Shown: positions 684-16,003, counted from the stretch's first letter. The stretch is DNA of 61,007 nt from an uncultured Candidatus Saccharibacteria bacterium (GCA_964568775.1 CAZMQW010000005.1:1-61007); one strand, 5' to 3'. The notes: generated from the sequence alone by a model not told the origin. Translations and numbers: made by a program.

Positions 684-766
684 CTGTGTGCCCCGGTCTA
701 GTACCAAAGTTTTAAAGGGAAACTGGGACTGTTTTTGGCTTCCCCATTGACCCGTCTTGGTCGGCC
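684..766. repeat. Repeat family copy E (left arm + 28-bp core), just 3' of tRNA-Gln copy 1
   Basis: CTGTGTGCCCCGGTCTAGTACC...TTTTAAAGGG aligns with 11931-11970 and 9782-9810; core 739-766 matches copy B core at 21/28. Confidence 0.7.
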
Positions 767-787
767 ACGATACTACGCTGACTGATG

Positions 788-858
788 CTGCGGGGCTTGG
801 ATTCGAACCAAGAATTCCAGGGCCAAGGCCTGGCGTGTTACCATTGCACCACCCCGCA
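788..858 (-). tRNA. tRNA-Gln (TTG), copy 1, atypical C33, no encoded CCA
   Basis: Cloverleaf: acceptor TGCGGGG/CCCCGCA, anticodon arm CCAGG-CCTTGGC-CCTGG, T arm CTTGG-TTCGAAT-CCAAG. Confidence 0.85.
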
Positions 859-875
859 ATATTGAGTATTTTACC

Positions 876-1550
876 TTATTTCCCCTCTTTTTGCAACGCT
901 TCAACAATAGCCAGTTCCAAGGGCAATTGAGGGATTGAGGAATACTTCATTTTGTTCTCCGCTTCCATAAAAAGCTTGATAATGCGCTGCAAGTCCTGCT
1001 CAGTAAAATCGGCAACTTGCGATTGCAGTTTTTCCTGCTCTTCCTTGGTCAGCCCGACAATGACCGGATTGGCCGGGTTAGCCTCTATTTTCAGAATCAA
1101 GCCTTGCCTCAAATAGTAAATCAAAGCCTTGGTGAACTCCTGCACGTCCTTGCCTTTTTCCAGTGTTTTGTTGAGAAAATCAATAGCCTCACCCGCTTTC
1201 TGCTGGCAAAGGAAACCAAAGAATTCGCTGATCAGCTTGGTATCAACCATGCCCAGCAAGTCCTTGATGTTTTCAGCCTTAATCGGCTCTTTGGCAGCGC
1301 CAGAAAACGTCAGCACCTGATCAAGAAGGCCTTCAGCGTCCCTGATTGCCCCGCCAGAACTGAGAGCGATCAGTTCCAGGGCGGGCTTTTCAATTTTAAC
1401 CCCTTCTTTTTTAACCAAATACTCCAAACGGCTGACGATTTCTGACAGGGTCAGCTTACGGAAATCAAATCTTTGGCAACGGGAAATGATGGTCGGAATC
1501 ATTCTGTGGATTTCGGTGGTGGCCAGAACGAAGATAGCGTGGGCCGGCGG
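876..1550 (-). pseudogene. dnaX: 5'-truncated second copy of dnaX (C-terminal 224 aa; frame stays open back to a TTG at 1595)
   Basis: From PPAHAIF onward about 93% aa identical (16/224 differences) to 13018..14133; lacks Walker A, Zn site and Walker B. Confidence 0.85.
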
Positions 1551-1578
1551 GTTTTTGATAGGGTCGAAACTTTTATAA

Positions 1579-1959
1579 CTACTTAATTTTTTCAATAAAA
1601 TCCTTTATCATCTCAACAAGCTCGAGCGAAGTATGCTGCGATTTCACGAAATAATCATCTGCTCCCGCCCGCAAAGCCTTTTGGATGCCCTCATCCATGC
1701 TGAGTGACGTCAAAATAACCACCGGAATGCTTTTTGTCCGGGGGTCTTTTTTCAGCTCTTGCAGCACTTCAAAACCCGACTTCTTGGGAAGCAACAAATC
1801 AAGCAAGACCAGGTCTGGTTTTTTTGACCGTACCAGTCTTACGCCTTTTTCGCCGTCAAACGCTAATAATACATCAAACCCCGCCTTAACCAATTCCTCC
1901 CGCATGACAATGGACAGGACTTCATCGTCTTCGATAAGGGTTATTTTGGGCTTTTTCAT
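1579..1959 (-). CDS. Single-domain response regulator receiver
   Basis: LIEDD, DLVLLDLLLP (phospho-Asp), VVILTS, DDYFVK motifs; no output domain. Confidence 0.9.
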   Translation of the reverse strand: MKKPKITLIEDDEVLSIVMREELVKAGFDVLLAFDGEKGVRLVRSKKPDLVLLDLLLPKKSGFEVLQELKKDPRTKSIPVVILTSLSMDEGIQKALRAGADDYFVKSQHTSLELVEMIKDFIEKIK

Positions 1960-2690
1960 GGCTTAGTATTAGTTAATGGCAATCTGACATAAAATGTCGT
2001 TCCTTTGTCTTTTGCCGAATCGAACCAAATCTTCCCTTTGAGCAATTTGACTGTTTGGCCGGCAGCGTAAAGACCCAGCCCCAGACCCTCTTGGTTGAGT
2101 GATCGGGCGTTACCGGCCCGGGTGAATTTTTCAAAAATATGCTTTTGGTCTTTCTTGGGAATACCAATGCCGTTGTCCCGGACCATAAGACAAAAAGTTT
2201 CCTTGTCTTTCTTTAAGGAAACTTCGATCCTGCCCCCTTTGGGAGTATATTCAATAGCGTTTAAAAAAAGTGGTTGAAAAATATTATAGAAAGCAGCGCT
2301 GTCAATAACGGCCCGGAGCATTGGCGGATGCTTCTGAAAAGTGACCGAAATGTTCTTTTTGGCCGAGAACAAAACATATTCTTTCAGGAAGTTTTTGACA
2401 AACTTCACCAGGTCAAGCGAGCGCGGAGAAAAAACTATTTTCCCGTGTTCAATGCGGGATACGTTTAAAAGCACGGTAATCAGGTCGTTCAGACGCACGG
2501 CCGAGGCGTGAATAAGCGTCAGATATTCTTTGGAGTATTTTGTCAGTTTCCCGGTCCGAAGCAACAATTCAATCATCCACTTGATGCGGGTGACCGGATT
2601 GCGAAGCTGATGCGATGCCAGATAAACAAATTCCTCGCTCCCCCCTTTGACGCTTCTCTCTAAGTGGTTCGCTCTGCCAGCCATAGCCAT
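1956..2690 (-). CDS. Histidine kinase, HisKA + HATPase only (no sensor domain)
   Basis: ASHQLRNP H-box, NAIEY N-box, DNGIGI G1, FEKF F-box, GLGLGL G2. Confidence 0.9.
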   Translation of the reverse strand: MAMAGRANHLERSVKGGSEEFVYLASHQLRNPVTRIKWMIELLLRTGKLTKYSKEYLTLIHASAVRLNDLITVLLNVSRIEHGKIVFSPRSLDLVKFVKNFLKEYVLFSAKKNISVTFQKHPPMLRAVIDSAAFYNIFQPLFLNAIEYTPKGGRIEVSLKKDKETFCLMVRDNGIGIPKKDQKHIFEKFTRAGNARSLNQEGLGLGLYAAGQTVKLLKGKIWFDSAKDKGTTFYVRLPLTNTKP

Positions 2691-4436
2691 CTATTGCAAC
2701 TTATCTAACTCTTGGCGAAGATACTTTCTCATCTTGCCGATTGTCTGGCGCATATTCTTCAAATGAAATTTCATTTCTGGCTTAGCTCTCCTCTCAAAAC
2801 CATTTTTCAATTTTTCTATCCATTCCTCCAGCCCTTTCAAATCGTCGGCCAAGAGCTTGGTTAATTTATCAATGTCTCGAGCAGCTACCATTTTATAGGC
2901 AGCCCGCTTTCTCTTGAGCGACAAATAATACCAGGCGCTGATACTGACGCCCGAGACAATCAGCAAGAGAACAATTAAAGCAATTTCAAACCAACCCAAC
3001 TCAACCAAGCCCACCGAAATAATGGTTGCCGCTTTTATTTTTAGCGTTTCCGCTTCGGTCGGATAGCTGACAGCCCCCCGGCCGTCGCGAGCTGTGACCG
3101 TTAAGGTATACTGTCCCCTGGCTAACAGTTTTTCAACGCTAATCTCCCAATTACCCAGTTCATCGCTACTGGCTTGGCCGGAAAAGATTTCCTGGCCGGC
3201 TTTGTTTGATATCAGAATGTCGACAAAACCATTTGGCATTGTCTTGCCGGAAGCAAAAATAGGCTCTCCCTGGCTGATTGATTTGGTTATAAAACTGATG
3301 AAGGGAATCGGTAAGGGCAATATTTCAAAATCCAAATCGTCCTCAACCCCGTTGCCAGCCGCATCAAGGGCTCTGACAGTAACCGTGTGCTTGCCGGGTG
3401 CTTGGGGTAATAAAACCGTAGCGGGCGAGGTTATTGAAGTTGGCCCTTTGCCGTCTATAAAAACCAAGTATTCGGCCACGCCCGATAAACTGTCGTGCGT
3501 TTCATAGCTTATTTCAGGAACCGGGTTGTCGCTGACTTCATTGTCAATCTCTATTTCAAAGGGCAGAGGCGGAGTTGTATCAATTGATATTTTATAATGG
3601 GCTATTTTGCCCCAGCCGACATTGTTCTTGAACTGAACATGGCCGTACCAAACGCCTTCTTCCAGCACGCCAAACTTCTGGCCGGTAAAAAGCTTTTCTG
3701 CTATGTTTTTGGGGTCGCCGTTGGGGTCTTGGTCAATTTGAGTGGCTACCTTAATAACGTCATCCGGCACCTCCCAAAAAACTATCACTTCGCCCAAATG
3801 GTTGTACCACTGGGAAGGATCGGGATAAAGAGGAATCGTTAAAACTGGTTCTTGGGGCAGATTCTGAGCTGTCACCGGCTCTCTGATGACTTCCACGGGC
3901 GCGGGCGGTGCGGCGGATTCTGGGATTTCGGCCGGTTCCGGTCTGATTGTTTCCACGCCGATTCCCACGCTGGTTCCTTCAATCACTGAAAGCACATTAG
4001 TCCCCTTGCCATCGCTGGCTGTGACCACGGCCTCGGCTACGGTAATCTCGGCCGCTCCCGAACCCATGGCTTTAAAATTCAGCCTGATAATTTGCAAAGC
4101 GCTGCCCGAAACACCCTTGGAGGTACCGCCAATAAAAACAACTTCGCCGTTCTCGTTTGAAATGTCGGGTCCTTCAATCCAAAAATTGAATATCGAGTTA
4201 TCTTTTTCAACGCTTAAAAGTTCTAAAATATTATTTTGAAACAACACCTTGGCTGCAGCAGCATTAATATCAACTTCCTGGCTGTCAACTTTCAAATCAA
4301 CGTAAAATTCGTCACCAACGCCAAAACCGTCTATTTCAGTAATAAAGTATAATTTGGCAGCTTCAACATGATTCGCCAAACCAAGAACAATAAACAATGA
4401 ACAAGAAATTATTAAAAAGGTTTTTTTATAACTCAT
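2691..4436 (-). CDS. Surface protein: signal peptide, cohesin-like domain, Pro-rich linker, Ig-like domains, TM helix, cytoplasmic coiled coil
   Basis: N-terminal beta-rich domain (FYVDLKVDS...INAAAAKVLF...SIFNFWIEGP) resembles CPR cohesin domains; PAPGKHTVTVRALDAAGN Ig-like motif; hydrophobic FEIALIVLLLIVSGVSISAWYY. Confidence 0.65.
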   Translation of the reverse strand: MSYKKTFLIISCSLFIVLGLANHVEAAKLYFITEIDGFGVGDEFYVDLKVDSQEVDINAAAAKVLFQNNILELLSVEKDNSIFNFWIEGPDISNENGEVVFIGGTSKGVSGSALQIIRLNFKAMGSGAAEITVAEAVVTASDGKGTNVLSVIEGTSVGIGVETIRPEPAEIPESAAPPAPVEVIREPVTAQNLPQEPVLTIPLYPDPSQWYNHLGEVIVFWEVPDDVIKVATQIDQDPNGDPKNIAEKLFTGQKFGVLEEGVWYGHVQFKNNVGWGKIAHYKISIDTTPPLPFEIEIDNEVSDNPVPEISYETHDSLSGVAEYLVFIDGKGPTSITSPATVLLPQAPGKHTVTVRALDAAGNGVEDDLDFEILPLPIPFISFITKSISQGEPIFASGKTMPNGFVDILISNKAGQEIFSGQASSDELGNWEISVEKLLARGQYTLTVTARDGRGAVSYPTEAETLKIKAATIISVGLVELGWFEIALIVLLLIVSGVSISAWYYLSLKRKRAAYKMVAARDIDKLTKLLADDLKGLEEWIEKLKNGFERRAKPEMKFHLKNMRQTIGKMRKYLRQELDKLQ

Positions 4437-5785
4437 TATAGTTTCATCAAATTAAGAAATACGCTGAAATCGGCAATATTTATCTGGCCATCGCCGTTTA
4501 AATCAATCGTTGACCTGAGATTAATGTCTGCCTGGCCCCAGCGGAAGAGAAAAACGCTCCAGTCGGTAATATTAATCACATCATCCTCGTTAAAATCCGC
4601 CTGAGGAATTTTTAATAAAGAAACTCTTAAATCTTTAGCCAGAGAAAAACTGCTCACCTTGCCCGCCGAATCTATTTGTCTGACTTTGGCCGAATGCTTG
4701 TCAGCCGTTAAAACATCTGTGTTTATCAGGGCCGTCCAAAAACCGTTTTCATCAGCCCAGGCCGTCTTCACAATCATATTGTCAATATAAACTTCTATGA
4801 CATTACCCGAACCAGCATAACCAAAAATATAGCTTTCCTTGCCTCGCGTCACCGCTATTTTTTCCAGTGCCACGGTCGGTGGCATAAAAATATCTTTTGC
4901 TTCTAAAATATTCTCTGTTTTCAAATCTACATCAAACGCTATAATGCTTGTTTTCCGGCCGTCTCTATCTTCCGCTCGCAAAGCAAAAAAATATTCATCT
5001 GATACTAAAGCACCCAGACTCAGGTTAAACTTGCCATCAGCTGAAACCTGATACATTTCTAAAGGAACAACTAGATACTGGGCTTCTTCATCTGTACTGC
5101 CCCTTCTTAAAACCTCTATTTTACTTTCAGGATAGGCCTGACCAGAAAAAGCCACCTTCACTCTTCTAGTTGAACCTGTCGGTCCCCCTTCCACAGGTTC
5201 TTCGGGGAGAATATAGGTAATAACCGCTGAAATTTTACTAACCAGAGTGTTCCTGGCTTTTTTATTGGTTACTCCTATTTCAATATCGCTGCCTGAAGTT
5301 TTAGTGAAACTAACAATATGGCTCTGGGTACTCCCGTTATATTCTGCTAATACTGACGAAATATTTTCGCCATAATCAGCACAACTGCCATTATGGCAAT
5401 ACCGTGTTTGAAATGCCCCATTAAGTCCCTGTTTTCTGTAGCAGACCGTAATATCAATTTGGGTTACTGTCGAATTATCAGGAATACTTGATTCGTCAAT
5501 ATCAAATGTTTGGCTGGCTTCATTGATGCTACTGATAATATAAGAGACATCGCCATCGCTACTATTGGTACACTTAGAACCACTCAACTCATCAACTCCA
5601 GTATAGCAATTGGTTGCGTTACAAGGAGTCTCGTTTAAAGTATTGCCCCAATCAGCGCTGTCGTCCCCGCCGTCAGCTGTCGGCCGCAAACCGGCTGTGG
5701 TATCTGCTAAAACAACATTGCTCGACAGCCCGCCGACAACAAGTAAGATTAATAAAATCTTAAAGCGAAGCATTAAAGTTTTCAT
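4436..5785 (-). CDS. Secreted protein with C-terminal dockerin-like duplicated Ca-binding loop
   Basis: Signal peptide; DFNEDDVINITDWSVFL and DLNGDGQINIADFSVFL repeats; Cys-rich N-terminal domain. Confidence 0.7.
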   Translation of the reverse strand: MKTLMLRFKILLILLVVGGLSSNVVLADTTAGLRPTADGGDDSADWGNTLNETPCNATNCYTGVDELSGSKCTNSSDGDVSYIISSINEASQTFDIDESSIPDNSTVTQIDITVCYRKQGLNGAFQTRYCHNGSCADYGENISSVLAEYNGSTQSHIVSFTKTSGSDIEIGVTNKKARNTLVSKISAVITYILPEEPVEGGPTGSTRRVKVAFSGQAYPESKIEVLRRGSTDEEAQYLVVPLEMYQVSADGKFNLSLGALVSDEYFFALRAEDRDGRKTSIIAFDVDLKTENILEAKDIFMPPTVALEKIAVTRGKESYIFGYAGSGNVIEVYIDNMIVKTAWADENGFWTALINTDVLTADKHSAKVRQIDSAGKVSSFSLAKDLRVSLLKIPQADFNEDDVINITDWSVFLFRWGQADINLRSTIDLNGDGQINIADFSVFLNLMKL

Positions 5786-5789
5786 CCAT

Positions 5790-6266
5790 TTATCTTGGCT
5801 TTGATCTTTCTGTCTTATCCTCTTGTCCTTTTGAAGGTTCTTTGGTTTCAGCCTCTTGGTTTTTTGCTGGCTTTTTGGCTTTTGGATGCTGCTCTTTCCC
5901 GAAAAAATTACTGACCATACCTACAATCTCACTAATGGCGTGCTGTGATTTGACTATGTAGTCATTGGCTCCCAAGCGAAGACCCTTCTTAATATCGTCA
6001 TCCCGACCAAGCATAGTCAGAACAATAACAGGAATGCTGCGAGTAACTGGAGATTTTTTAATCTCTTCCAGCACGCTGAACCCGTCTTTTTTAGGCAGAA
6101 TGAGGTCAAGCAAAACCAAGTCTGGTTTCTCAGCCCTGACCAACCTTAAACCTTCCTCGCCGTCAAAAGCTTGCGATACATCAAAATCTCCCTCAGACAG
6201 TTCCTCATAAATAACTTTAGCTAAGACCTCATCGTCTTCTATCAAAAGTATTTTTAGCTTTGCCAT
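5790..6266 (-). CDS. Response regulator receiver with charged C-terminal tail
   Basis: LLIEDD, DLVLLDLILP, ANDYIVK motifs; paralog of 1579..1959. Confidence 0.9.
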   Translation of the reverse strand: MAKLKILLIEDDEVLAKVIYEELSEGDFDVSQAFDGEEGLRLVRAEKPDLVLLDLILPKKDGFSVLEEIKKSPVTRSIPVIVLTMLGRDDDIKKGLRLGANDYIVKSQHAISEIVGMVSNFFGKEQHPKAKKPAKNQEAETKEPSKGQEDKTERSKPR

Positions 6267-6292
6267 TTTTTTATTATAACTTAATTAAATAA

Positions 6293-7903
6293 TTAAGCCA
6301 AAGGCTTGCTTCCTTTTTTCGACCTTACTTTAAGAGGAAGCTCAATATAAAAGGTACTCCCTTTGTTCTCTTCTGATTCAAACCAAATCTTGCCCTGCAA
6401 AAGATCAACTGTGCTTTTGGCAAAATAAAGACCGAAGCCGATACCATCGGTCTTCATTAGTTTGGCATTGGTCCCCCGGGTGAATTTATCAAAAATAATT
6501 GGCTGTTCTTTTTTAGGTATGCCAATACCATTATCACTAATTATCAAAAGAAAAGTGCGCTCTTTCTTTCTCAAGGACACCTCCACCCTGCCTCCCTTGG
6601 AAGTGTATTCAAGAGCGTTAGAAACAACCGCTTGCACAATAGTGTGCAAGGCGCTGATATCGGTAACTACGTTAAGGGTTTTGGGGTGTTTTTGGAAAAC
6701 AACAGTTAGGTCCTTTTTGTCACAGAGCGGACTGCATTCGTCAAGATAATCATCGACAAACTCTACTAATTCCAACGCCTTGGGAGAAATACTTACCTCA
6801 CCCCCTTCAATCCGAGATACGTTCAACAAAAGATCAACTAAATTAGAAAGGCGTTGAAAACTGGTGTGAATGTCTTTAAGGTATCCTTTCCCTTTTTCGC
6901 TTAACTTTTCCTCTTTTTTCATGAACCGTTCTACTACCCATTGAGCACCAGTCAAGGGAGTGCGGAGTTGGTGTGAAGCAATAGAAATAAAATCGCTTCT
7001 CATTTTGTTGGTTTTCTTTTGTTGTTTTAATTCTACTTCCAACCTGCTCTTTTCCGCTACTACTGCCTCAGCTTTTTTCTGCTCGGTGATGTCTTCGATG
7101 GCCAGAAGTATTCTTTCCGGTTGCGCTGGCGGCGGAGGTATGCGTCGAGCATTCAAAAGCATTATTCGTTTGCCAATCTTTGGGAATTTATGCTCAACTT
7201 CAAAGTTATCAAATATTGCGTGCTTGGGAAGTATTTTCTCTAAGAGCTGGCGTAGTTTAGGAATATTCCATTGGCGATTCCCTAAATTATAGATAAATTT
7301 CCCCTCCGTCTCCCTGGGTACTACTTTAAAAATCTGATAAAAAGAGCGGCTGGCGGAAACTACCTTTAAGTCTCTATTCAGAACTAAAAATGGTTCACGC
7401 ACAGTGTTAACAATACTCTCAGCATAGTCACGGGTCTTCCGGGCGTCTTGTTTCATCAACGTGCGCTCGGTGATATCTTCAATGGCCAGTAAGATTAACT
7501 CTTCTTCTTCTTCTTCTTCTCCTCCTGTTATTGCCCTGGCTATTTTTTTTGGGATGCGCATTTGACGAGCGTTCAGGCTTATAATCCGGTGTCCAATTTT
7601 TTTGAAATCATGCTCAATTTGGTAATCTATTACAACCGTTTTATTAGACAAAATATTTTTTAATAGATGGATTAATTTTGGGATATTCCACTGGCGATTA
7701 CCTAAACTAGGAATTAGTCGACCGACCGTTTCTTTTTTAGTGGCCTTGAAAGTATTAAAGAAAGACCGGTTGGCAGAAACAACCCGCAAGTTTTTATCAA
7801 GGACCAAAAATGGCTCTCTCAATGTAGCGATAATACTTTCGGCATACTTTAAAGCTGTTTTAACTGTCCTTTCTGTTTGTTTTGGCTTTCTTATTTTTTT
7901 CAC
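6293..7903 (-). CDS. Cytoplasmic PAS-PAS sensor histidine kinase
   Basis: Two near-duplicate PAS domains (AESII/VxTxREPFLVL...LGNRQWNIPKL), ASHQLRTP H-box, DNGIGI, GIGFGL; no TM segment. Confidence 0.9.
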   Translation of the reverse strand: MKKIRKPKQTERTVKTALKYAESIIATLREPFLVLDKNLRVVSANRSFFNTFKATKKETVGRLIPSLGNRQWNIPKLIHLLKNILSNKTVVIDYQIEHDFKKIGHRIISLNARQMRIPKKIARAITGGEEEEEEELILLAIEDITERTLMKQDARKTRDYAESIVNTVREPFLVLNRDLKVVSASRSFYQIFKVVPRETEGKFIYNLGNRQWNIPKLRQLLEKILPKHAIFDNFEVEHKFPKIGKRIMLLNARRIPPPPAQPERILLAIEDITEQKKAEAVVAEKSRLEVELKQQKKTNKMRSDFISIASHQLRTPLTGAQWVVERFMKKEEKLSEKGKGYLKDIHTSFQRLSNLVDLLLNVSRIEGGEVSISPKALELVEFVDDYLDECSPLCDKKDLTVVFQKHPKTLNVVTDISALHTIVQAVVSNALEYTSKGGRVEVSLRKKERTFLLIISDNGIGIPKKEQPIIFDKFTRGTNAKLMKTDGIGFGLYFAKSTVDLLQGKIWFESEENKGSTFYIELPLKVRSKKGSKPLA

Positions 7904-8120
7904 AGTTTTTAATTAATGTAATAATTAAAAAAACCACCACTTAAATCAGCGATGGAAATTCATGCTTAATATTAAACTTGCACTAAAACTAAAATTCCGA
8001 ACCCGGCTTCGTCTCTCTCGGTATGTAAAAATTATAAAATTCCCAAGCCTCATGTCCCTCTAGTATATATTATACCACAAGGCCTTGTGATAACAAACTG
8101 TGGATAACCCTTTGACCTCA

Positions 8121-8867
8121 TTAAATCTGTATTTTCGAAAACAGATAACTGCCCACCGAAAGCAATAACAGCGTTATCGCTCCCAAGACCAAGAAATCCA
8201 AGCTGAGACCGAAATGGGCTCCGTTGACCAAGGTAGCGCGCAAACCGTCAACCCCGTAAGACAGAGGGTCAATGCTGGCCACGATACTGATTGCTTTGGG
8301 CAAGTTTTCAAGAGGAAAAAGGGCGCCCGAAAGGAAGAACAGCGGCATAACGAGAAAATTCATGATGAGCTGAAAGCCCTGCATATCTTCCAAGACCGAA
8401 GCGATGGCCGTTCCCAAGGCGGAAAAAAGAACGGCGATGAGAAACATGAAAACCAGCCCCAAGGGCAGCATGGCCAGATTGCCGAGTCGGAAGCCGATGA
8501 AAAACGAAATACAGAGAACGATGATGCCCTGGAGAGTGGCCACCGTTGCCCCGCCCAAAGTCCGGCCGATCATGATCTTGAACCGCGACACCGGAGCAAC
8601 CAGGGTCTCTTTGAGAAATCCGAACTGTTTGTCCCAGATGATTTCAATGCCGGAGAATACGGCGGTAAAAAGAATGCTCATGGCAATGATGCCCGGGGCC
8701 AAAAACTGGATGTAGTCTCCCCCGCCGGCCCTTTGGTAAATCGGGCCGAAACCGAAACCGAGCGCCACCAGGAAAAGCAGCGGCTGTCCCAAAGAACCGA
8801 TGATCCGCGCCCTGGAGCGGTAATGCCTTTTCAATTGTCGCAGCCAAAGTATGTAAATCGTGCTCAT
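8121..8867 (-). CDS. ABC-2 type exporter permease (DrrB-like)
   Basis: Six hydrophobic segments; FGFLKETLVAPV and DPLSYGVDGLR motifs. Confidence 0.88.
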   Translation of the reverse strand: MSTIYILWLRQLKRHYRSRARIIGSLGQPLLFLVALGFGFGPIYQRAGGGDYIQFLAPGIIAMSILFTAVFSGIEIIWDKQFGFLKETLVAPVSRFKIMIGRTLGGATVATLQGIIVLCISFFIGFRLGNLAMLPLGLVFMFLIAVLFSALGTAIASVLEDMQGFQLIMNFLVMPLFFLSGALFPLENLPKAISIVASIDPLSYGVDGLRATLVNGAHFGLSLDFLVLGAITLLLLSVGSYLFSKIQI

Positions 8868-8879
8868 GTTTTTTTAATT

Positions 8880-9668
8880 TTATCTTCGGTGCATCCTTCG
8901 ACGCATTCTCAGCCGGTCAAGGGAACCGGCTTCTTCCTCGCGGATAGTGTTTCCCGTCAAAGCCAGGAACGCATCCTCCAAAGAAGCGGTCTTGGTGCTA
9001 TATTTGAGTTCGGCGGGCGTACCCGTAGCGATAATCTTGCCGTGGTCGATAATGGCAATCCTTTGAGCGATCTTTTCCGCTTCCTCCATGTAATGGGTGG
9101 TGAAAAAAATCGTCATCCCTTCTTTCTCGTTCAAATTCTTAATGTGGCTCCAAATATGGCTTCTCGTCTGGGGGTCGAGGCCGAGCGTCGGTTCGTCCAA
9201 AAAAAGTATCTTGGGATGATGAATCAATCCCCTGGCGACCTCGAGCCGCCGCTTCATGCCTCCGGAAAATTTCTTGACCAGTTCGTCTCTCCTCTCCCAA
9301 AGTTCAACGAACTTCAGCAACTGTTCTATTCTTTCCCGGCGAATCTGCTTGGGCACCCTGTAAAGTACGCCGTGAAATTCCATGTTCTCGCGAGCGGTCA
9401 GCTCATCGTCCAGACTTTGGTCTTGAAAAACTATACCGAAAGAACGACGCACCTCGTTCTTTTCCTTGGCTACGTCGCTCCCGTTCAAATTAATTGACCC
9501 GGCGCTGGGACGCAAAAGCGTAATCAACATTTTGATAGTAGTAGTCTTGCCAGCACCGTTCGGTCCCAAAAAACCGAAAATCTCCCCTTTCTTTACCTTG
9601 AAGGATATGTTGTCAACCGCAATGAATCCATTGAACTTTTTCGTTAAATTCTTAACTTCTATCATCAA
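8880..9668 (-). CDS. ABC exporter ATP-binding subunit (DrrA-like)
   Basis: GPNGAGKTT, FSGGMKRR, ILFLDEPT. Confidence 0.92.
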   Translation of the reverse strand: MMIEVKNLTKKFNGFIAVDNISFKVKKGEIFGFLGPNGAGKTTTIKMLITLLRPSAGSINLNGSDVAKEKNEVRRSFGIVFQDQSLDDELTARENMEFHGVLYRVPKQIRRERIEQLLKFVELWERRDELVKKFSGGMKRRLEVARGLIHHPKILFLDEPTLGLDPQTRSHIWSHIKNLNEKEGMTIFFTTHYMEEAEKIAQRIAIIDHGKIIATGTPAELKYSTKTASLEDAFLALTGNTIREEEAGSLDRLRMRRRMHRR

Positions 9669-9781
9669 GTTTTTAATTTATTAAAAACGCAGGTGGAAAA
9701 GATGGTTTATCTTCTTTGACTATAACGCTATTTTACCAAAAAACCGCCCTATTGGCGACTTTCTGAACATAATGCTGGCAT

Positions 9782-9864
9782 CCTCGGTCTAGAACCAGGG
9801 TTTCAAGGGGAATTTCGGGGTTTTAGAGGGTGTCTCAATAACGCGTCTAGGTCGGGGTATTTTT
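9782..9864. repeat. Repeat family copy D (left arm + core, no right arm)
   Basis: CCTCGGTCTAGAACC..GGGTTTCAAGGGG then core GTGTCTCAATAACGCGTCTAGGTCGGGG (9830-9857; 23/28 to copy B). Confidence 0.75.
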
Positions 9865-9882
9865 GTATTATATCAAAATAAA

Positions 9883-9914
9883 AAGGAGTTTAGAAATTTC
9901 CTTCTAAACTCCTT
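9883..9914 (-). terminator. Intrinsic terminator of 9922..10548
   Basis: Perfect 13-bp stem AAGGAGTTTAGAA/TTCTAAACTCCTT with T-rich tail on minus strand. Confidence 0.75.
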
Positions 9915-9921
9915 AAAACGG

Positions 9922-10548
9922 CTATTCCCGATCTTGTATTGTGGAGAGTATTAATTCCTCTATTTCCACTATTCGGCCAAGCTCAAGTGCCACATTATAG
10001 AGATGTTCTCGAGATTGAACCCAACCCTTTACGGTCTCGCCCAAGTGTTTCCAGATTTCTTCTAGTTCTGTTTTCGTCATGTCGACAATCGTGATTAAGT
10101 CTGATTCTTGAATGTCCACCGTTTCGGCTTTCTCATAACCCCGGCGCTTATATCTTACTTCGCCTTTAAAAGTGACTTCTACCAAAACCCAAAGAGCATT
10201 TCTGGTAAGACCCCAGATGTACATTTTGCCATCAGGAATAGAACCCTCGCCGGGAGCACCGCGGAAACCGCTATCCGGAATTCTCTGAATACCAGAGTAA
10301 GGGCGGTCGAAAATGCCCTGAGTTTTGAGAGAAAACCTCTCATCTCCTATTAGAGTCGGGCTATCAAAGCGCAACTCGTGACTAAAAGTCTCTGTTCTCA
10401 AACACTTTAGATCACCTAGCTCAGATAAGGTAAATGAATTAAGGTGCGGTTTGATGAGTGAGTGGCGAGCCTCTATTAGTTGGTGCCACTCTCCAGCTGT
10501 TAGTGGTTTCTTTCGAGCTAACAATTCTAGTCCTTCGGTATTGGGCAT
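9922..10548 (-). CDS. Hypothetical protein (cassette gene between copies A and D)
   Basis: 208-aa ORF with AAGGAGG SD, TTGACA-16-TAAATT promoter-like site and own terminator. Confidence 0.75.
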   Translation of the reverse strand: MPNTEGLELLARKKPLTAGEWHQLIEARHSLIKPHLNSFTLSELGDLKCLRTETFSHELRFDSPTLIGDERFSLKTQGIFDRPYSGIQRIPDSGFRGAPGEGSIPDGKMYIWGLTRNALWVLVEVTFKGEVRYKRRGYEKAETVDIQESDLITIVDMTKTELEEIWKHLGETVKGWVQSREHLYNVALELGRIVEIEELILSTIQDRE

Positions 10549-10634
10549 ACCCTCAACCTCCTTTTTTTATTTCTGAAAGGCGTACCCTTCAGATATTATA
10601 ATTTAGCACTTACATTTTTTATGTCAACTTCGGT

Positions 10635-10694
10635 GTGTGCCACTGATCCAACTCGGTCAGGGATTTTTAAGCTAAAATGGGACAAATGGGACAC
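10635..10694. repeat. Repeat family copy A (core + right arm, 60 bp)
   Basis: GTGTGCCACTGATCCAACTCGGTCAGGGATTTTTAAGCTAAAATGGGACAAATGGGACAC; extra TGGGACAC box at 10714-10721. Confidence 0.85.
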
Positions 10695-10818
10695 AGAAAG
10701 GGGGTGTACCATTTGGGACACTGTAGTGTGCCATTATAAAAGAAAAACCGCCTCAACTAATTTAATAGTATATTGGCGGAAGTAATTAGTCTACTCGGTT
10801 TCTTAATAGTGTCAGCTC

Positions 10819-11124
10819 CTACCAAGAATCTCTACCGAATCTTTCAGGGTGATTTTTGATAAAGAAGATTACCCTGACAAGAGCCAGTAGGAAAAGAGCG
10901 TCTCCTATCCCCATTACTAAGTAATGAAGAATATTGAAATGGAGCCCTTCTTCAGCTGACATAACCCCGAAGAATTGTAGAGTATAGCTCGGGCCAATTA
11001 TTATAAGAGCTAAACACCCTATACTTAGCACCCACTCCACTACTTGGTCTGCGAATAACAGAAAGGGCTGAACTCTACCATACACTAAGAAGTTATCGAG
11101 CTTCCAGTATAACCATTCAAACAT
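10819..11124 (-). CDS. Hypothetical membrane protein
   Basis: 101 aa, two hydrophobic helices, AAAGGAGG SD. Confidence 0.7.
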   Translation of the reverse strand: MFEWLYWKLDNFLVYGRVQPFLLFADQVVEWVLSIGCLALIIIGPSYTLQFFGVMSAEEGLHFNILHYLVMGIGDALFLLALVRVIFFIKNHPERFGRDSW

Positions 11125-11135
11125 CTTTTCCTCCT

Positions 11136-11477
11136 TTATTTCTCGAAAATATAATGTCGCCCCTCGAACGGGTCAGCACCTTTTTCGTTAAAAACGATGC
11201 CGTGTTTCTTACAGAAGTGGCGAAGAAGATTGAGAAAACCTTCTTCTTTGGAAGCGTCAATAGTCACACTGATGCACCATCGCCGTCCGTACGAACCGAA
11301 ATCAACATTGCCGCCGGTTTCTTTTGTATACATTATCGGCAGAAATAGATCTCCGACATCAACGTGTAATTCCTCTTCTATCTTTTTCTTGATATCATCT
11401 GGGTCACCCTGCTCTGGCAACATTATCTTTATTGATAAGGTCTTCTGATAAATAACCATCCCTTTATTATTCGACAT
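11136..11477 (-). CDS. Hypothetical protein
   Basis: 113 aa, AAAGGAGG SD, upstream TTGATT-16-TAAAGT promoter-like site. Confidence 0.7.
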   Translation of the reverse strand: MSNNKGMVIYQKTLSIKIMLPEQGDPDDIKKKIEEELHVDVGDLFLPIMYTKETGGNVDFGSYGRRWCISVTIDASKEEGFLNLLRHFCKKHGIVFNEKGADPFEGRHYIFEK

Positions 11478-11564
11478 CTTTTGTGCTACCTCCTTTATTT
11501 AGTATTCTCTACTTTACCACTCTTTAAATAAAAATCAAGCCCATCTCGGGCTCGAAAATTATAC

Positions 11565-11624
11565 GTGTCCCACTGACCCGTCTCGGTCGGGGCTTTTATT
11601 CGGGAAATGGGACAAATGGGACAC
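11565..11624. repeat. Repeat family copy B (core + right arm, 60 bp, terminal inverted GTGTCCCA/TGGGACAC)
   Basis: GTGTCCCACTGACCCGTCTCGGTCGGGGCTTTTATTCGGGAAATGGGACAAATGGGACAC. Confidence 0.85.
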
Positions 11625-11636
11625 TGGCTATAATTT

Positions 11637-11861
11637 TTATTCTCCTTGTGATCTGGCTTCTGGCTCTTCCAGTGACTCATCTTTATATCCTCCAAGCACG
11701 CTGCCACAATTCTCACAATGAATTAATATCACCGGATGAACGTCGGTACCCTCCCCGTGTTCTGAAGTCATAATCTGTAAACCATAAGGCAACCCATAAA
11801 TTTTATTTTCTGCTCCGCAGTGTGGACATTTAATTTTATTTTTCATAATACTTATATTCAC
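11637..11861 (-). CDS. Small zinc-ribbon protein (probable start MKNKIKC at 11849)
   Basis: CPHC...CENC pair in 70-74 aa. Confidence 0.65.
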   Translation of the reverse strand: MNISIMKNKIKCPHCGAENKIYGLPYGLQIMTSEHGEGTDVHPVILIHCENCGSVLGGYKDESLEEPEARSQGE

Positions 11862-11930
11862 CGCTTATTTTTAATTAATTCTTCGACTTTTTAGAGGCGG
11901 CTCGGTCGCCCAGAACTGCGCTCAAGGTGG

Positions 11931-12046
11931 CTGTGTACCTCAGTTCTGAACCCCGGTTTTAAAGGGGTTTTTGGGCGGTTTTGGACGTGTCCCACTTAGG
12001 TGTCTCAGTCGGGGCTTTTTAAGCTAAAATGGGACAAATGGGACAC
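11931..12046. repeat. Repeat family copy C (left arm + core + right arm; the only complete copy)
   Basis: Left arm 11931-11986 aligns to D and E; 60-bp unit 11987-12046 GTGTCCCACTTAGGTGTCTCAGTCGGGGCTTTTTAAGCTAAAATGGGACAAATGGGACAC; extra CTCGGTCGCCC box at 11901. Confidence 0.85.
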
Positions 12047-12112
12047 GAATTAGAGATATTTTCGATGTCTCGTTTTTCGTCTAAATCTATAAATAGAACT
12101 AGAAGTCCTCTT

Positions 12113-12826
12113 TTAGAAACAACAGTCATCAAGAGTCGGCCTAGCATCTGAACAGGTGTAATTTCCCTTATGAGAAGCAGTATGCCATTCCCCGCCTTCG
12201 AGGGTAGCATAGATACAAAATTTTTGATCATCACTAGTATTATCAACCCAAACATAAGGAGTTTTAGTGTCTTCCAAAGGATCAATTGGGACATCCATCA
12301 TATAAGAACCAATGGATGAGGGCCAAGTTTTGCCATCGCTTTGATAATAACACCAATCTCCTCCACCATAATATATCTCTTGAGCGGTAACTATCATTCG
12401 CATATCAGACTTTCTTGTGACGTCTCGAACCATTATCTTCGCTTTCTCCTGTTGCACTATGACTTCGGCCATAGTCCAAATTATACTCTCCATCTCTATC
12501 TTCAATCCTTCTAATTCCGCTTCGGTCATTGCAATGGGTTCTTCTTTGACTGTCCTTTGCCATATTTCATTTTTCAACTCTTCTTTTTCATCTTCTGTGA
12601 TCTTAAACTCTATACCCTCCTTTTCCGCCTTTTCTTCCACTTTTTTTATTAACATTTCCATCATTTCTGTCGCTACTTGGGTTGGCGCTATCAAACCATT
12701 TTCTCTTTCAATTTCTAATGTTTCACCTTCTTCTTCTCCCAGATATTGCCAAATAAAATATCCTCCGCCAATAAGAATAACCAGTATAATTATAATTCCG
12801 ATTGTAGAAAAAGATTTGTTATTCAT
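12113..12826 (-). CDS. Membrane-anchored protein with C-terminal type IV pilin/GspG-like globular domain
   Basis: N-terminal TM after KSFS; RDVTRKSDMRMIVTAQEIYY, VPIDP and FCIYATLE resemble CPR pilin motifs; Cys-rich end. Confidence 0.65.
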   Translation of the reverse strand: MNNKSFSTIGIIIILVILIGGGYFIWQYLGEEEGETLEIERENGLIAPTQVATEMMEMLIKKVEEKAEKEGIEFKITEDEKEELKNEIWQRTVKEEPIAMTEAELEGLKIEMESIIWTMAEVIVQQEKAKIMVRDVTRKSDMRMIVTAQEIYYGGGDWCYYQSDGKTWPSSIGSYMMDVPIDPLEDTKTPYVWVDNTSDDQKFCIYATLEGGEWHTASHKGNYTCSDARPTLDDCCF

Positions 12827-12926
12827 AATAACCTTATGTTAATAATCTTTCCTTATTATAACATATGTGATGCGTTTCGGTCGCCCTGGCCAGATATGCA
12901 TCTCGGTCACCTGACTTAGTATATGA

Positions 12927-13000
12927 TGGCTGCGGGGCTAGGACTCGAACCTAGATACACAGATCCAAAATCTGTTGTCCTACCGTTAGACGACCCCGCA
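12927..13000 (-). tRNA. tRNA-Gln (TTG), copy 2, encoded CCA
   Basis: Cloverleaf with anticodon arm ACAGA-TTTTGGA-TCTGT, T arm CTAGG-TTCGAGT-CCTAG, G73-CCA. Confidence 0.95.
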
Positions 13001-13017
13001 ATACAGGTTATTTTACC

Positions 13018-14133
13018 TTATTTTTCCTCTTTTGACAACGCTTCCACAATAGCCAATTCCAAAGGCAATTGAGGAATTGAGGAATACTTCATTTTATTCT
13101 CCGCTTCCAGAAAAAGTTTTATAATACGCTGCAAATCCTGTTCGGTAAAATCAGCCACCTGGGCTTGCAGTTTTTCCTGCTCTTCCTTGGTTAGGCCGAC
13201 GATAACCGGATTGGCCGGGTTAGCCTCTATTTTCAGAATCAAACCCTGTCTCAGGTAATAAATTAAAGCTTTGGTGAATTCCTGAACATCCTTGCCTTTT
13301 TCCAGTGTTTTGTTCAGAAAATCAATGGCTTCGCCGGCTTTTTTTTGGCAAATAAAATCATAGAATTCGCTAATTAATTTTGTATCAACCATACCCAGCA
13401 AGTCCTTAATGGCTTCAGCTTTAATCGGCTCTTTAGTATTACCAGAAAAAGTCAGCGCCTGGTCAAGCAGACCTTCAGCATCCCTAATGGCCCCGCCGGA
13501 ACTGAGAGCAATCAGCTCCAGGGCCGGTTTTTCAATCTTCACCTCTTCTTTTTTAACCAGATATTCTAAGCGGCTGACGATTTCCACCAACGTCAGTTTA
13601 CGGAAATCAAACCGCTGGCAGCGGGAAATAATAGTAGGAATCATTTTGTGGATTTCGGTGGTGGCTAAAATGAAAATGGCATGGGCTGGCGGCTCTTCCA
13701 AAGTTTTTAATAAAGCGTTGGCTGCTTCTTTGGTCAACTGGTGGGATTCGTCAATAATAAAAACCTTGTATTTTGACCTGGCCGGTGAAAAACGAATCCC
13801 CTCTCTCAACTCCCTGATCTCATCAACTCCCCGATTGGAAGCAGCGTCAATTTCAATCAGATCAATAGACCTGCCTTCGTTGATTTCTAAACAGGAGATG
13901 CATTTGTTACAGGGCTCAAACTCATTCTCTTTACGGTTCTCGCAGTTAACTGCTTTGGCCAAAAGACGGGCCATAGAGGTTTTACCGCAGCCCCGCGGTC
14001 CGGAAAACAAATAAGCGTGGGAAATCATCCCCGAGCTCAAAGCATTGGTCAAAGTCTGCACCACGTGCTCCTGGCCGGTAATCTCGGAAAAGCTCTTGGG
14101 CCGGTATTTACGATATAAAACTAAATTAGCCAT
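13018..14133 (-). CDS. dnaX: DNA polymerase III subunit gamma/tau (short form)
   Basis: LYRKYRP, GPRGCGKTS, Zn cysteines, IDAAS, DESH, SRCQ. Confidence 0.97.
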   Translation of the reverse strand: MANLVLYRKYRPKSFSEITGQEHVVQTLTNALSSGMISHAYLFSGPRGCGKTSMARLLAKAVNCENRKENEFEPCNKCISCLEINEGRSIDLIEIDAASNRGVDEIRELREGIRFSPARSKYKVFIIDESHQLTKEAANALLKTLEEPPAHAIFILATTEIHKMIPTIISRCQRFDFRKLTLVEIVSRLEYLVKKEEVKIEKPALELIALSSGGAIRDAEGLLDQALTFSGNTKEPIKAEAIKDLLGMVDTKLISEFYDFICQKKAGEAIDFLNKTLEKGKDVQEFTKALIYYLRQGLILKIEANPANPVIVGLTKEEQEKLQAQVADFTEQDLQRIIKLFLEAENKMKYSSIPQLPLELAIVEALSKEEK

Positions 14134-14174
14134 AATTATCGTATTTTATCAAATATGGTAGAATAAATAAAGTT

Positions 14175-15557: not shown

Positions 15558-15575
15558 AAACTTAAGCTGTAAAAT

Positions 15576-15615
15576 AAAAGGAGACGCTTCTCGTTAAAGA
15601 AACGTCTCTTTTTTT
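15576..15615. terminator. Bidirectional terminator between cysS and the XRE gene
   Basis: AAAAGGAGACG...CGTCTCTTTTTTT hairpin between convergent genes. Confidence 0.65.
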
Positions 15616-15626
15616 GAAGCATCAAC

Positions 15627-15974: not shown

Positions 15975-16003
15975 CTCCTCACTTAATATTTTTAAGCATA
16001 CCT

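Follow-up and report, generated by a model that had tools for sequence, protein, structure and literature searches.

The dnaX-tRNA-Gln region of a salt-marsh Ca. Nealsonbacteria (Patescibacteria) is present as one intact and one truncated copy separated by 11.4 kb, and the truncated one (copy A) is, on the evidence of its sequence, a xenolog that derives from a sister lineage and was truncated recently, not a local duplication. We draw this conclusion because the two copies have diverged to a dS of about 1 under purifying selection, and because copy A has its own GC-enriching mutational bias, carries a tRNA of a different type and contains no stops. The window, meaning the whole stretch of DNA analysed (61,007 nt), is a complete 61-kb contig. 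The recombination scar that it carries is a clean one, but of an ordinary kind.

A diverged direct repeat of dnaX and tRNA-Gln

Comparison of the window with itself by BLASTN gives a single long direct repeat, in which 783-1550 matches 12924-13692 with 83.4% identity over 770 aligned nt (3 gaps, E = 0). Both dnaX-tRNA-Gln copies are on the minus strand:

783-1550, minus strand: repeat copy A; dnaX 3' half, spacer and tRNA-Gln (BLASTN)
787..858, minus strand: tRNA-Gln(UUG) copy A (ARAGORN; Rfam 57.7 bits)
876..1550, minus strand: truncated dnaX', codons about 148-371 (ORF, alignment, Pfam)
12924..13692, minus strand: repeat copy B; dnaX 3' half, spacer and tRNA-Gln (BLASTN)
12927..13000, minus strand: tRNA-Gln(UUG) copy B (ARAGORN; Rfam 61.8 bits)
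13018..14133, minus strand: intact dnaX, DNA polymerase III gamma/tau, 371 aa (ORF and translation)
13021-13692, minus strand: repeat-B part (3' part) of intact dnaX (repeat alignment)

Alignment of the copies shows that homology begins precisely at CCGCC(G/A)GCC, encoding Pro-Pro-Ala, with no significant similarity in the 90 nt upstream, and that its other limit is the tRNA 3' end. There are 104 differences among the 672 shared coding nt (84.5% nucleotide identity), of which 17, 10 and 77 fall at codon positions 1, 2 and 3; 208 of 224 amino acids are identical (92.9%), and dN is 0.039, dS 1.04 and dN/dS 0.038. The sequence-only reading had paired 788-1550 with 12930-13692, placed a sharp end of homology at about 1550, estimated about 93% amino acid identity with mismatches mostly at third codon positions, and noted a truncated copy without stops, and on all of these points the alignments and counts agree with it. 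The tRNA copies, with 73% identity and compensatory stem changes, are far more divergent than the dnaX parts.

The intact dnaX has homologues 67-81% identical in 80 GTDB genomes, and its 5' and 3' halves are equidistant from relatives L167 and L164. The adjacent tRNA-Gln copy B has the D-arm and T-arm of the closest relatives, being 92-95% identical to those of L086, L006 and L045, and has a promoter-like site at 13038-13010. tRNA-Gln copy A differs from copy B in its D-arm and anticodon arm, has the anticodon loop CCUUGGC (C33) and is of a type found in more distant co-occurring lineages (L119, 93%; L112); with its own promoter-like site at 896-868 it may still be expressed. The frame of dnaX' is free of stop codons across 224 codons, and terminates at 876-878; the full ORF has 239 codons (876-1595) and shares 17 nt with the end of the response regulator gene RR1. 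The fragment retains sensor-1, the SRC motif, the lid and domain III but has neither Walker A nor Walker B, and it matches the Pfam profiles DNA_pol3_gamma3, DNAX_ATPase_lid and just the last 36 positions of DNA_pol3_delta2.

Phylogenetically, copies A and B form one clade with 99% bootstrap support. Polarised changes on the A branch comprise 34 synonymous and 9 non-synonymous, and those on the B branch 17 and 4; the ratio is equal on both branches, and copy A has therefore undergone almost no pseudogene-phase decay. AT-to-GC and GC-to-AT changes stand at 32:9 on the A branch and 9:11 on the B branch. We saw no switching of derived changes between the copies along the repeat, and therefore no crossover inside it. 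These counts, together with the low dN/dS, bear out the earlier proposal of two halves that diverged as orthologs, each under selection in its own lineage, before being joined recently.

The DNA between the copies

The interval and the flank beyond copy A contain the following features:

11929..12927, minus strand: cassette-like insert E1, beginning at the tRNA 3' end with ATCATATACTAAGTCAGGTGAC
9774..11928, minus strand: cassette-like block E2, with four small ORFs, internal repeat units and an att-like tail ...GCCAGC
9738..9758, minus strand: native-type terminator hairpin (TCGCCAATAGGGCGGTTTTTT), then GGTAAAAT (alignment)
8121..9668, minus strand: ABC-2 type exporter; ATPase 9668->8880, permease 8867->8121 (Pfam)
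1579..7903, minus strand: six-gene sensor/surface-protein (two-component) module (Pfam; gene order in relatives)
7903->6293, minus strand: module gene 1, PAS histidine kinase (Pfam)
6266->5790, minus strand: module gene 2, response regulator (Pfam)
5785->4436, minus strand: module gene 3, dockerin protein (Pfam)
4436->2691, minus strand: module gene 4, Big_13 surface protein (Pfam)
2690->1956, minus strand: module gene 5, histidine kinase (Pfam)
1959->1579, minus strand: module gene 6, response regulator RR1 (Pfam)
1551..1578, minus strand: junction, 28 nt separating the RR1 stop codon from the first homologous dnaX base
683..786, minus strand: att-like scar UA, a geneless repeat unit ending in the tail GGTACTAGACCGGGGCACACAGC (alignment)
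650..682, minus strand: second native-like post-tRNA flank; AAATT, then a terminator hairpin and T-run

To judge by its gene content, the 11.4 kb is mostly ordinary chromosomal DNA and not a mobile element, because it has no recombinase, because the module is conserved elsewhere in relatives and because a native-type terminator follows the cassette array. Pfam searches of all 13 genes between the repeats and of 20 other genes elsewhere in the 61-kb contig gave no integrase, resolvase or transposase, and tblastn with two large serine recombinase queries gave no match in the window. The order of the six-gene module is kept in L177, L178 and L179/L180, where it lies elsewhere on the chromosome, with 67-75% nucleotide identity extending to about 1597. 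The terminator at 9738..9758 is homologous to the sequence immediately 3' of tRNA-Gln in L167 and L086, and the exporter matches ABC_tran (5.8e-37) and ABC2_membrane (2.5e-37). The term "cargo block", used for the interval in the sequence-only reading, is a misnomer for what is mostly chromosomal DNA that relatives hold elsewhere, without a recombinase.

E1 encodes a 237-aa pilin-like protein (12826->12113) and ends in a repeat unit (12046->11987) followed by a tRNA-3'-end-like tail, ...CACAGCC. The E1 cassette is found at 100% identity in L168, in which another unit replaces the tRNA upstream with a precise junction. The four ORFs of E2 encode a 74-aa zinc ribbon and proteins of 113 aa, 101 aa and 208 aa, and its internal repeat units are at 11624->11565 and 10694->10635. 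The contig ends 786 nt past tRNA-Gln copy A, and the far end of any imported segment would lie outside it.

The tRNA-Gln 3' end as an integration hot spot

The dnaX-tRNA-Gln locus is an integration hot spot. The order dnaX then tRNA-Gln is conserved among relatives, contigs end no more than 500 nt past dnaX in 21 of 80 of them, and Pfam-confirmed large serine recombinase genes lie 0.1-2.5 kb past tRNA-Gln in 16 of 160 loci. In different species, the left ends of elements lie exactly against the 3' end of the tRNA, and the left-end motif of E1 adjoins tRNA-Gln in 13 relatives. E1, E2 and UA have precise boundaries and tails (GGTTCwAGAmCkGrGG..CACAGC(C)) similar to the 3' end of the tRNA, and only these three qualify as tandem inserts delimited by an intact tRNA and att-like repeats. 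Downstream of both tRNA copies lie att-like units and then a terminator, which agrees with the earlier description of two landing pads in tandem. Across the clade, large-serine-recombinase elements use the tRNA-Gln 3' end as their attachment site, so that foreign DNA with a dnaX-tRNA-Gln region often arrives there and the locus is prone to recombination of the kind proposed below.

An integron is recognised by a tyrosine recombinase gene, intI, and its attI site, together with attC sites whose R''/L''/L'/R' cores follow GTTRRRY. The window does not fit this description: no intI is detected by Pfam among the genes scanned, and the units end in GTGTCCCA...TGGGACAC and CACAGCC, not GTTRRRY. Single-strand folding of the units is only modestly better than that of shuffled sequences. 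A speculative scenario, to which we attach a small probability, is that the dnaX-tRNA-Gln region of Nealsonbacteria hosts an integron-like, trans-acting cassette system and that the dnaX'-tRNA duplication is its by-product. Small gene cassettes would share the conserved ends ATCAyATGCTAAGTCAGGTGAC ... GTGTCCCATTTGTCCCATTT ... CACAGCC, large serine recombinases encoded elsewhere would shuffle them from one species to another at the 3' end of the tRNA, and this machinery, by acting on flanking chromosomal DNA or taking it along, would give the duplicated dnaX'-tRNA locus. If true, the cassette system would be a route for chromosomal-segment exchange between CPR lineages.

Alternative explanations of the duplication

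The sequence-only reading had raised a chimeric assembly and a simple local duplication as alternatives. A chimera, in which two co-occurring strains were merged at shared sequence, might be suspected in a community with many related lineages, given the low depth and an assembly graph that is tangled at the tRNA, with variant contigs or loose ends at 787, 860, 12929 and 13003. However, the breakpoint at 1550/1579 is not in shared sequence, and no repeat at that point could have misled an assembler. L001, L002 and L003, from three samples, span the junction at 99.9-100% identity. Three independent assemblies from two pipelines reproduce it, those of JGI 3300031551, JGI 3300031624 and Logan SRR9706179. 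In X1 and X2, depth stays uniform at about 4-7x over the interval and the two copies. The assemblies are all low-depth short-read ones (3-9x), with no one molecule seen to run through both copies. Independent contigs tile 7300-11100 and span 12217-13198, and the tRNA-B to E1 junction is spanned by contigs (record 21 of X3); we regard a chimera as very unlikely. A simple segmental duplication is rejected, as the copies are not near-identical and the truncated copy is not neutral, with equal branch ratios and a dS far from the value near zero expected of a local duplication. An old within-genome duplication of identical copies that then diverged in place would agree with copies A and B being mutually closest among all sequences found, but about three non-synonymous changes per synonymous change plus stops would be expected, where 9:34 and an open frame are observed. 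The mutational bias of copy A also differs from that of the neighbouring copy in the same genome and its tRNA is of another structural type, so that this explanation is contradicted by the data and is the least credible that we considered.

The lack of decay in dnaX' would also be explained if the gene had been kept for a function, such as that of a clamp-loader accessory whose translation is coupled to RR1, and its intact 239-codon frame, its overlap with the RR1 stop, a dN/dS as low as that of full genes, and its complete SRC motif, lid and domain III are all consistent with such a role. However, dnaX' begins in the middle of the AAA+ core without Walker A or B, no such gene occurs in 160 related loci, and divergence before truncation fully accounts for the low dN/dS given the equal branch ratios. 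We therefore find a functional dnaX' improbable, and the half gene is probably a fresh, functionless remnant. A further explanation is that an integrative element targeting the interior of dnaX, and carrying its own replacement piece (dnaX 3' half and tRNA-Gln), inserted site-specifically, such that B-3' and the 11.4 kb are the element and copy A is the displaced host fragment. Diverged direct repeats of an essential-gene 3' part flanking an insert, with the intact gene in frame, are what such an element would leave; recombinase-bearing elements use the dnaX-tRNA-Gln locus in relatives, and the AT-to-GC bias of the dnaX 5' half is closer to that of copy A. Against this, there is no integrase or recombinase in the 11.4 kb or the whole contig, the insert holds a native-type post-tRNA terminator and the chromosomal six-gene module of relatives, and every recognisable att-like site is at the tRNA 3' end and none at the dnaX breakpoint. 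The breakpoint has just CCGCC in common between the copies, with no att-like motif; dnaX-internal insertions occur in 0 of 160 related loci, and in substitution rate the 5' half agrees with B-3'. We consider such an element unlikely.

A plausible scenario for the merodiploid

The sequence-only reading had offered two mechanisms, and of these the addition of a relative's dnaX-tRNA-cassette locus by recombination is favoured. An element bringing its own replacement fragment is the less probable of the two, because there is no recombinase, the DNA is mostly chromosomal and the att-like sites are at the tRNA 3' end. The merodiploid was probably made by one illegitimate joint inside dnaX together with recombination elsewhere, of the homology-facilitated type. 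DNA of a sister lineage would have recombined with the chromosome at the dnaX-tRNA-Gln region, with a joint inside dnaX at one end that was illegitimate, whether non-homologous or based on microhomology. At the other end there would have been a crossover, homologous or site-specific, that lay outside the repeat, in dnaX or core genes upstream of it or past the contig end. Equivalently, an aberrantly excised integrative element could have captured flanking host DNA. The outcome would be a partial merodiploid in which the intact dnaX is the working gene. In relatives at least about 130 nt of spacer (about 130-240 nt) separates the RR1 gene from the next called gene. Neither an intact A-type dnaX nor an uninterrupted locus was found among the 160 related loci or by protein search. 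We note that homologous recombination is inefficient between sequences only about 84% identical, which counts against the recombination scenario.

As to which copy is resident, we lean towards the intact locus B and the 11.4 kb, with locus A and the DNA past the contig end being imported. The reverse, in which locus A is the displaced resident 3' end and B-3' with the 11.4 kb was imported, is a substantial possibility that we hold to be somewhat less than even. Derived changes per site are 0.127 in the 5' half, 0.125 in B-3' and 0.161 in A-3', with a likelihood ratio of about 5 for the B-3' match, but this direction test is weak, as with other outgroup sets the dnaX 5' half is intermediate between A and B, and its AT-to-GC bias is closer to that of A. 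GC3 differences are uninformative on direction.

Comparison with known systems

The prophage e14 and phage 21 integrate in E. coli icd, with the element carrying a diverged replacement 3' end. The arrangement described here is similar in that diverged direct repeats of an essential-gene 3' end flank an insert and the intact gene is in frame, with mostly synonymous differences. It departs from the icd elements in lacking an integrase, prophage genes and other mobile-element gene content, as well as an att core at the breakpoint in dnaX; the 770-nt repeat takes in an entire tRNA gene, and what lies between the copies is chromosomal in character. In lambda dgal heterogenotes, aberrant excision takes host DNA next to the attachment site; these share the sharp illegitimate end within a host gene and a recipient diploid for the fragment, but here the interval between the copies is free of phage genes, and the contig has neither capsid nor terminase genes.

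Genomic islands that target tRNA genes (Islander, PMC4383910), and islands built by tycheposons, a minority of which employ large serine recombinases (bioRxiv 10.1101/2020.12.28.424599), are comparable in that the tRNA gene is a conserved hot spot at which newer insertions displace older ones outward, leaving tRNA-like remnants. Unlike these, the window is without an integrase, its remnants are att-like tails and not true partial tRNAs, and its second copy consists of an entire tRNA together with 670 nt of the gene upstream, a product that ordinary att recombination does not give.

A close correspondence is with homology-facilitated illegitimate recombination (de Vries & Wackernagel 2002, Prudhomme et al. 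2002 and Meier & Wackernagel 2003, as cited in PMC5361080), in which a relative's DNA is anchored by homology on one side and illegitimately joined on the other; that the inserted DNA is foreign is indicated here by the dS of 1.04, the separate mutational bias and the different tRNA type. The 'orphan 3' module' arrays of Rhs, CDI and T6SS loci are thought to be products of this process (PMC5361080; PMC3240628). They differ in concerning a polymorphic toxin, where the gene here is the essential housekeeping dnaX with its tRNA, but in both the 3' part of a resident gene and its downstream partner would be retained as a displaced fragment beside a new copy.

A diverged direct repeat of dnaX and tRNA-Gln

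Comparison of the window with itself reveals a single long direct repeat, in which 783-1550 matches 12924-13692 with 83.4% identity over 770 aligned nt and three gaps. One copy (copy B) ends an intact dnaX gene and includes the tRNA-Gln(UUG) gene behind it (tRNA-B); the other (copy A) is a truncated dnaX (dnaX') with a second tRNA-Gln(UUG) gene (tRNA-A). Homology starts exactly at CCGCC(G/A)GCC, the Pro-Pro-Ala codons of PPAHAIF, and by local alignment the 90 nt upstream of 1550 are no more alike than shuffled sequence; the other limit is the tRNA 3' end. The coding parts differ at 104 of 672 nt (17, 10 and 77 at codon positions 1, 2 and 3), 208 of 224 amino acids are identical, and the frame of copy A contains no stop codons. 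The sequence-only reading had described a sharp end at PPAHAIF, an excess of third-position changes and a stop-free truncated copy, and all of its figures for the repeat are correct.

Features of the two loci and the DNA between them (minus-strand features are read from high to low coordinates)
14133-13018, minus strand: intact dnaX of 371 codons, its 3' 672 nt belonging to copy B, followed by a 17-nt spacer
13000-12927, minus strand: tRNA-Gln(UUG) of copy B
12927-11929, minus strand: E1, a cassette-like insert beginning exactly at the tRNA 3' end and coding for a pilin-like protein of 237 aa; it closes with a repeat unit, GTGTCCCATTTGTCCCATTT ... CCCGACTGAGAC ... GGGACAC, and then a tail, GGTTCAGAACTGAGGTACACAGCC, resembling a tRNA 3' end
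11928-9774, minus strand: E2, a second such insert with four small ORFs and two internal units, its tail similar to that of E1
9758-9738, minus strand: hairpin and T-run, homologous to the terminator directly after tRNA-Gln in the related loci L167 and L086
Downstream of the 9738 hairpin, before the six-gene module: ABC-2 exporter
1579-7903: six-gene module, in the order PAS kinase, regulator, dockerin protein, Big_13 surface protein, kinase, regulator
1550-876, minus strand: dnaX' of copy A, homologous from 1550 through its stop codon (876-878), followed by the same spacer
858-787, minus strand: second tRNA-Gln(UUG), that of copy A
786-683, minus strand: UA, an att-like unit without a gene, directly after tRNA-A
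673-650, minus strand: AAATT and a terminator, following UA

DnaX homologues place the contig among Ca. Nealsonbacteria / Paceibacterota, within Patescibacteria. The gene directly behind dnaX is tRNA-Gln(UUG) in about 65 of 80 species representatives, and of 160 related loci not one has a second dnaX 3' fragment. L167 and L164 are the closest relatives (82% and 81% nucleotide identity), the latter being collinear with the window from 23042 to 13036 and diverging completely after dnaX. Searches for a parental or uninterrupted locus gave no intact A-type dnaX in GTDB genomes, among the JGI metagenome matches listed or by protein comparison with copy A (best match 88% identical), and exact look-up of DnaX-B and CysS returned no record. 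We note that L164 (11171-11866) and the same-sample locus L112 (3265-3957) carry a homologous, selfish-looking 230-aa ORF between dnaX and tRNA-Gln, with no Pfam family and a weak HTH match; a by-eye resemblance to LAGLIDADG endonucleases was dropped, as Pfam gave no such match. Also selfish-looking is the arrangement at L084:3640-4140, where a partial 5' duplicate of tRNA-Gln and then a GIY-YIG endonuclease gene lie between dnaX and the full tRNA-Gln.

Origin of the two copies

That the repeat is a chimeric assembly of two strains is contradicted by the recurrence of its junction elsewhere. Exact protein look-up finds the last module gene, which abuts copy A, on three other contigs, whose sources are two JGI samples and a Logan assembly; each has the same junction (99.9-100% identity), and the junction words are present in 14 salt-marsh runs. 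When contigs of four runs are placed on 1-16000, depth is even over both copies and the interval (about 4-9x in runs X1 and X2); one contig covers 12217-13198, and thus cassette, tRNA-B and dnaX end, and 7300-11100 is tiled by contigs of two runs at a threshold of at least 98% identity. The breakpoint at 1550 contains no repeat, so there is nothing there to mislead an assembler. The window is the entire contig of 61,007 nt. The junction and coverage checks proposed with the sequence-only reading thus both speak for a real joint.

An old local duplication within one genome would also leave two copies, and is rejected on three grounds: substitution pattern, mutational bias and tRNA type. In a codon alignment copies A and B have dN 0.039, dS 1.04 and dN/dS 0.038; true orthologs fall in the same range, the corresponding pair of values for copy B and L167 being 0.058/1.27. 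Bootstrap support for a clade of A and B is 99% at all sites and 90% at positions 1 and 2. With L167 and L164 used for polarisation, 34 synonymous and 9 non-synonymous changes fall to the A branch; the B branch has 17 and 4, respectively. A pseudogene phase adds about three non-synonymous changes per synonymous one, and the equal ratios on the two branches indicate that copy A was part of a working gene for essentially the whole time since the copies separated. The A branch is strongly GC-enriching (32 AT-to-GC and 9 GC-to-AT changes) and the B branch balanced (9:11), a difference hard to reconcile with long co-residence in one genome. Identity between the two tRNAs is only 73%. In its D-arm and T-arm tRNA-B agrees with the nearest relatives, with 92-95% identity to L086, L006 and L045, and the D-arm type of tRNA-A is found in lineages whose dnaX is only 65-70% identical in nucleotides, for example L119 (93%) and L112. 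On this sequence evidence copies A and B are recently joined xenologs. The earlier proposal that the 3' halves evolved as orthologs under selection in separate lineages and were joined recently is thereby upheld: dS is not near zero, and the ratio in copy A is not neutral.

Composition did not serve as a test of origin. The GC3 values of the copies, cargo and core overlap, and the GC3 difference from L164 ranges from -0.09 to +0.19 across core genes, so that neither copy is assignable. A search for gene-conversion or mosaic tracts also gave no candidate: the longest identical run in the repeat, 38 nt, is not significant (p about 0.13), identity stays even throughout, at 0.79-0.90, and nowhere do derived changes switch between the copies, from which it follows that each copy has a single origin over its whole length.

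Several further observations concern tRNA-Gln. Among 131 related loci the tRNA-Gln(UUG) anticodon stem (window 817-833 and 12955-12971) is hypervariable, with 58 different 5' strands and 1.58 bits per position versus about 0.4-0.6 for the acceptor and D stems, and despite this variability it is fully paired in 129 of them. In 29 of the 131, tRNA-A included, the loop is CCUUGGN, its position 33 being C in place of U. A 4834-nt Logan contig of X2 matches 1-863 except for eight changes and then runs into unrelated sequence; the changes swap both anticodon-stem strands of tRNA-A to CCUCA/UGAGG, as in L112, and this variant (tRNA-A*) is joined to window 1-786 at 100% identity. Either the flank is common to a second organism, or the contig is a de Bruijn mis-join through the identical 3' part of the tRNAs; since at least the last 31 nt of tRNA-A* and tRNA-A are identical, the contig was set aside.

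DNA between and beside the copies

The 11.4-kb interval is ordinary chromosomal DNA and not a mobile element. No integrase, resolvase or transposase was detected by Pfam between the repeats or in the contig (all interval genes and 20 others). Four other Nealsonbacteria-like contigs (L177, L178, L179/L180) carry the six-gene module with its gene order conserved; its surroundings there differ, for example before holA and rpsT, and its nucleotide similarity to the window extends down to about 1597. In L180 the module lies just downstream of a diversity-generating retroelement (RVT_1 and bAvd).

The pattern at tRNA-A repeats that at tRNA-B in miniature, giving two complete loci of tRNA-Gln, att array and terminator in tandem, the second cut on its left inside dnaX, 28 nt past the stop codon of the last module gene. 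The tandem landing pads suspected from the sequence are thus present, each tRNA being followed by att-like units and a terminator. Beyond the terminator after tRNA-A lie about 650 nt without a convincing ORF (window 1-650; 2900-3600 of contig L001), extending to a secreted-protein gene (MKKIVISLAIIGVV...AWWTD) that starts just past the contig end. They contain an inverted repeat (327-349 and 398-420) and resemble nothing in any fetched locus, and Rfam gave no match above noise on the 700-nt non-coding flank.

The tRNA-Gln 3' end as an insertion hot spot

Within this clade, insertions concentrate at the 3' end of tRNA-Gln. Contigs of relatives end within 500 nt after dnaX in 21 of 80 cases, and within 500 nt before it in five. 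A large serine recombinase encoded on the IMG/VR contig L173 has homologues in 16 of 160 related loci, always 0.1-2.5 kb after tRNA-Gln and on the opposite strand; three of the 16 are confirmed by Pfam. The domains are Resolvase, Recombinase and Zn_ribbon_recom, and the loci include L053, L054, L077, L106, L125, L137, L139, L143, L159 and L162. Throughout the clade tRNA-Gln appears to be an attB for serine-recombinase elements. L173 also carries the unit motif of the window, 30 nt from another serine recombinase gene.

The sequence after ...GCAGC(C) is nearly identical across species while the tRNAs differ, showing that element ends abut the tRNA precisely; the left end of E1, ATCAyATGCTAAGTCAGGTGAC, adjoins tRNA-Gln in 13 relatives. 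The same-sample contig L168 carries E1 at 100% identity but preceded by another unit rather than by tRNA-B, with the junction exactly at CAGCC|ATCAT. Together these boundaries indicate that site-specific recombination is active at this position in the community, and the occurrence of E1 in another left context with a precise boundary suggests that the blocks of the array are mobile cassettes without a recombinase of their own.

Within the array after tRNA-B (9774-12927; L168:1-110) a 60-nt unit, GTGTCCCATTTGTCCCATTT-N12-CCCGACyGAGAC..GGGACAC, ends gene blocks at 10635-10694, 11565-11624 and 11987-12046, and two blocks run on to the tRNA-3'-like tail. Five of seven IMG/VR matches to the unit motif were discarded as unrelated GGGACA iteron arrays, and only L173 resembles the unit of the window. 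The viral contigs L170, L171, L172, L174 and L176 have inverted GGGACAAATGGGACAAATGGGACA iteron arrays about 70 nt apart and further CGGGACAA repeats; such iterons share the core word of the unit, not its structure.

Mechanism and meaning of the joint

The direct evidence on mechanism is the sharp non-homologous joint inside dnaX, the single origin of each copy over its length, the even divergence with no significant identical tract, and the chromosomal nature of the interval. The most likely scenario is that a chromosome segment of a sister lineage was joined to this one, with an illegitimate joint at one end and a single crossover lying outside the repeat; the same product would result from an aberrantly excised element that had captured flanking DNA, in the manner of specialised transduction. 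With locus B and the interval as residents, a fragment reaching from inside the donor dnaX-A to beyond the contig end would have entered behind the module. With locus A as the resident, incoming DNA would have recombined homologously in or upstream of the dnaX 5' half, importing B-3' (the 3' half of copy B), tRNA-B and the 11.4 kb, with its illegitimate end in the host dnaX, whose 3' half would have been displaced. Derived changes per site number 0.127 in the 5' half, 0.125 in B-3' and 0.161 in A-3', a likelihood ratio of about 5 for a resident locus B; other outgroup sets put the rate of the 5' half between those of B-3' and A-3', and in AT-to-GC bias the 5' half lies closer to A. We modestly favour locus B and the interval as the resident, and hold residence of locus A to be a substantial possibility of lower standing.

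The geometry also fits an e14-like element carrying a dnaX-tRNA replacement fragment, as had been suggested, but that explanation fails: a recombinase is lacking, the gene content is chromosomal, and the dnaX breakpoint has none of the tRNA-end or att-like motifs. The locus is thus not a member of the class of integrative elements with replacement. A functional DnaX' is possible, its ORF being open and overlapping the upstream stop codon, but structurally unlikely, as the truncation runs through the AAA+ core and leaves out Walker A and B; nor is such a function needed to account for the locus. There were no RNA runs among those matching the region. The duplication is probably without function.

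Candidate Phyla Radiation (CPR) bacteria are uncultured, and DNA exchange among them is little known. In this locus, recombination between two lineages that had diverged to dS about 1 has left a clean footprint that can be dated, one end of it an illegitimate joint in an essential gene; it shows such cells to take up and fix kilobase-scale chromosomal DNA of relatives. The putative attachment site at tRNA-Gln, for serine-recombinase elements and small cassettes, could steer searches for CPR phages and for att sites as genetic tools; the serine-recombinase and cassette system there is a more interesting lead than the duplication, an ordinary type of scar.

[quoted passage not shown] The locus behaves like such an orphan-module event, situated at a tRNA hot spot of the kind reported for genomic islands (PMC4383910) and tycheposons (bioRxiv 10.1101/2020.12.28.424599). 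The scar is of a known type, and the window adds a new example from a group whose recombination is poorly documented.
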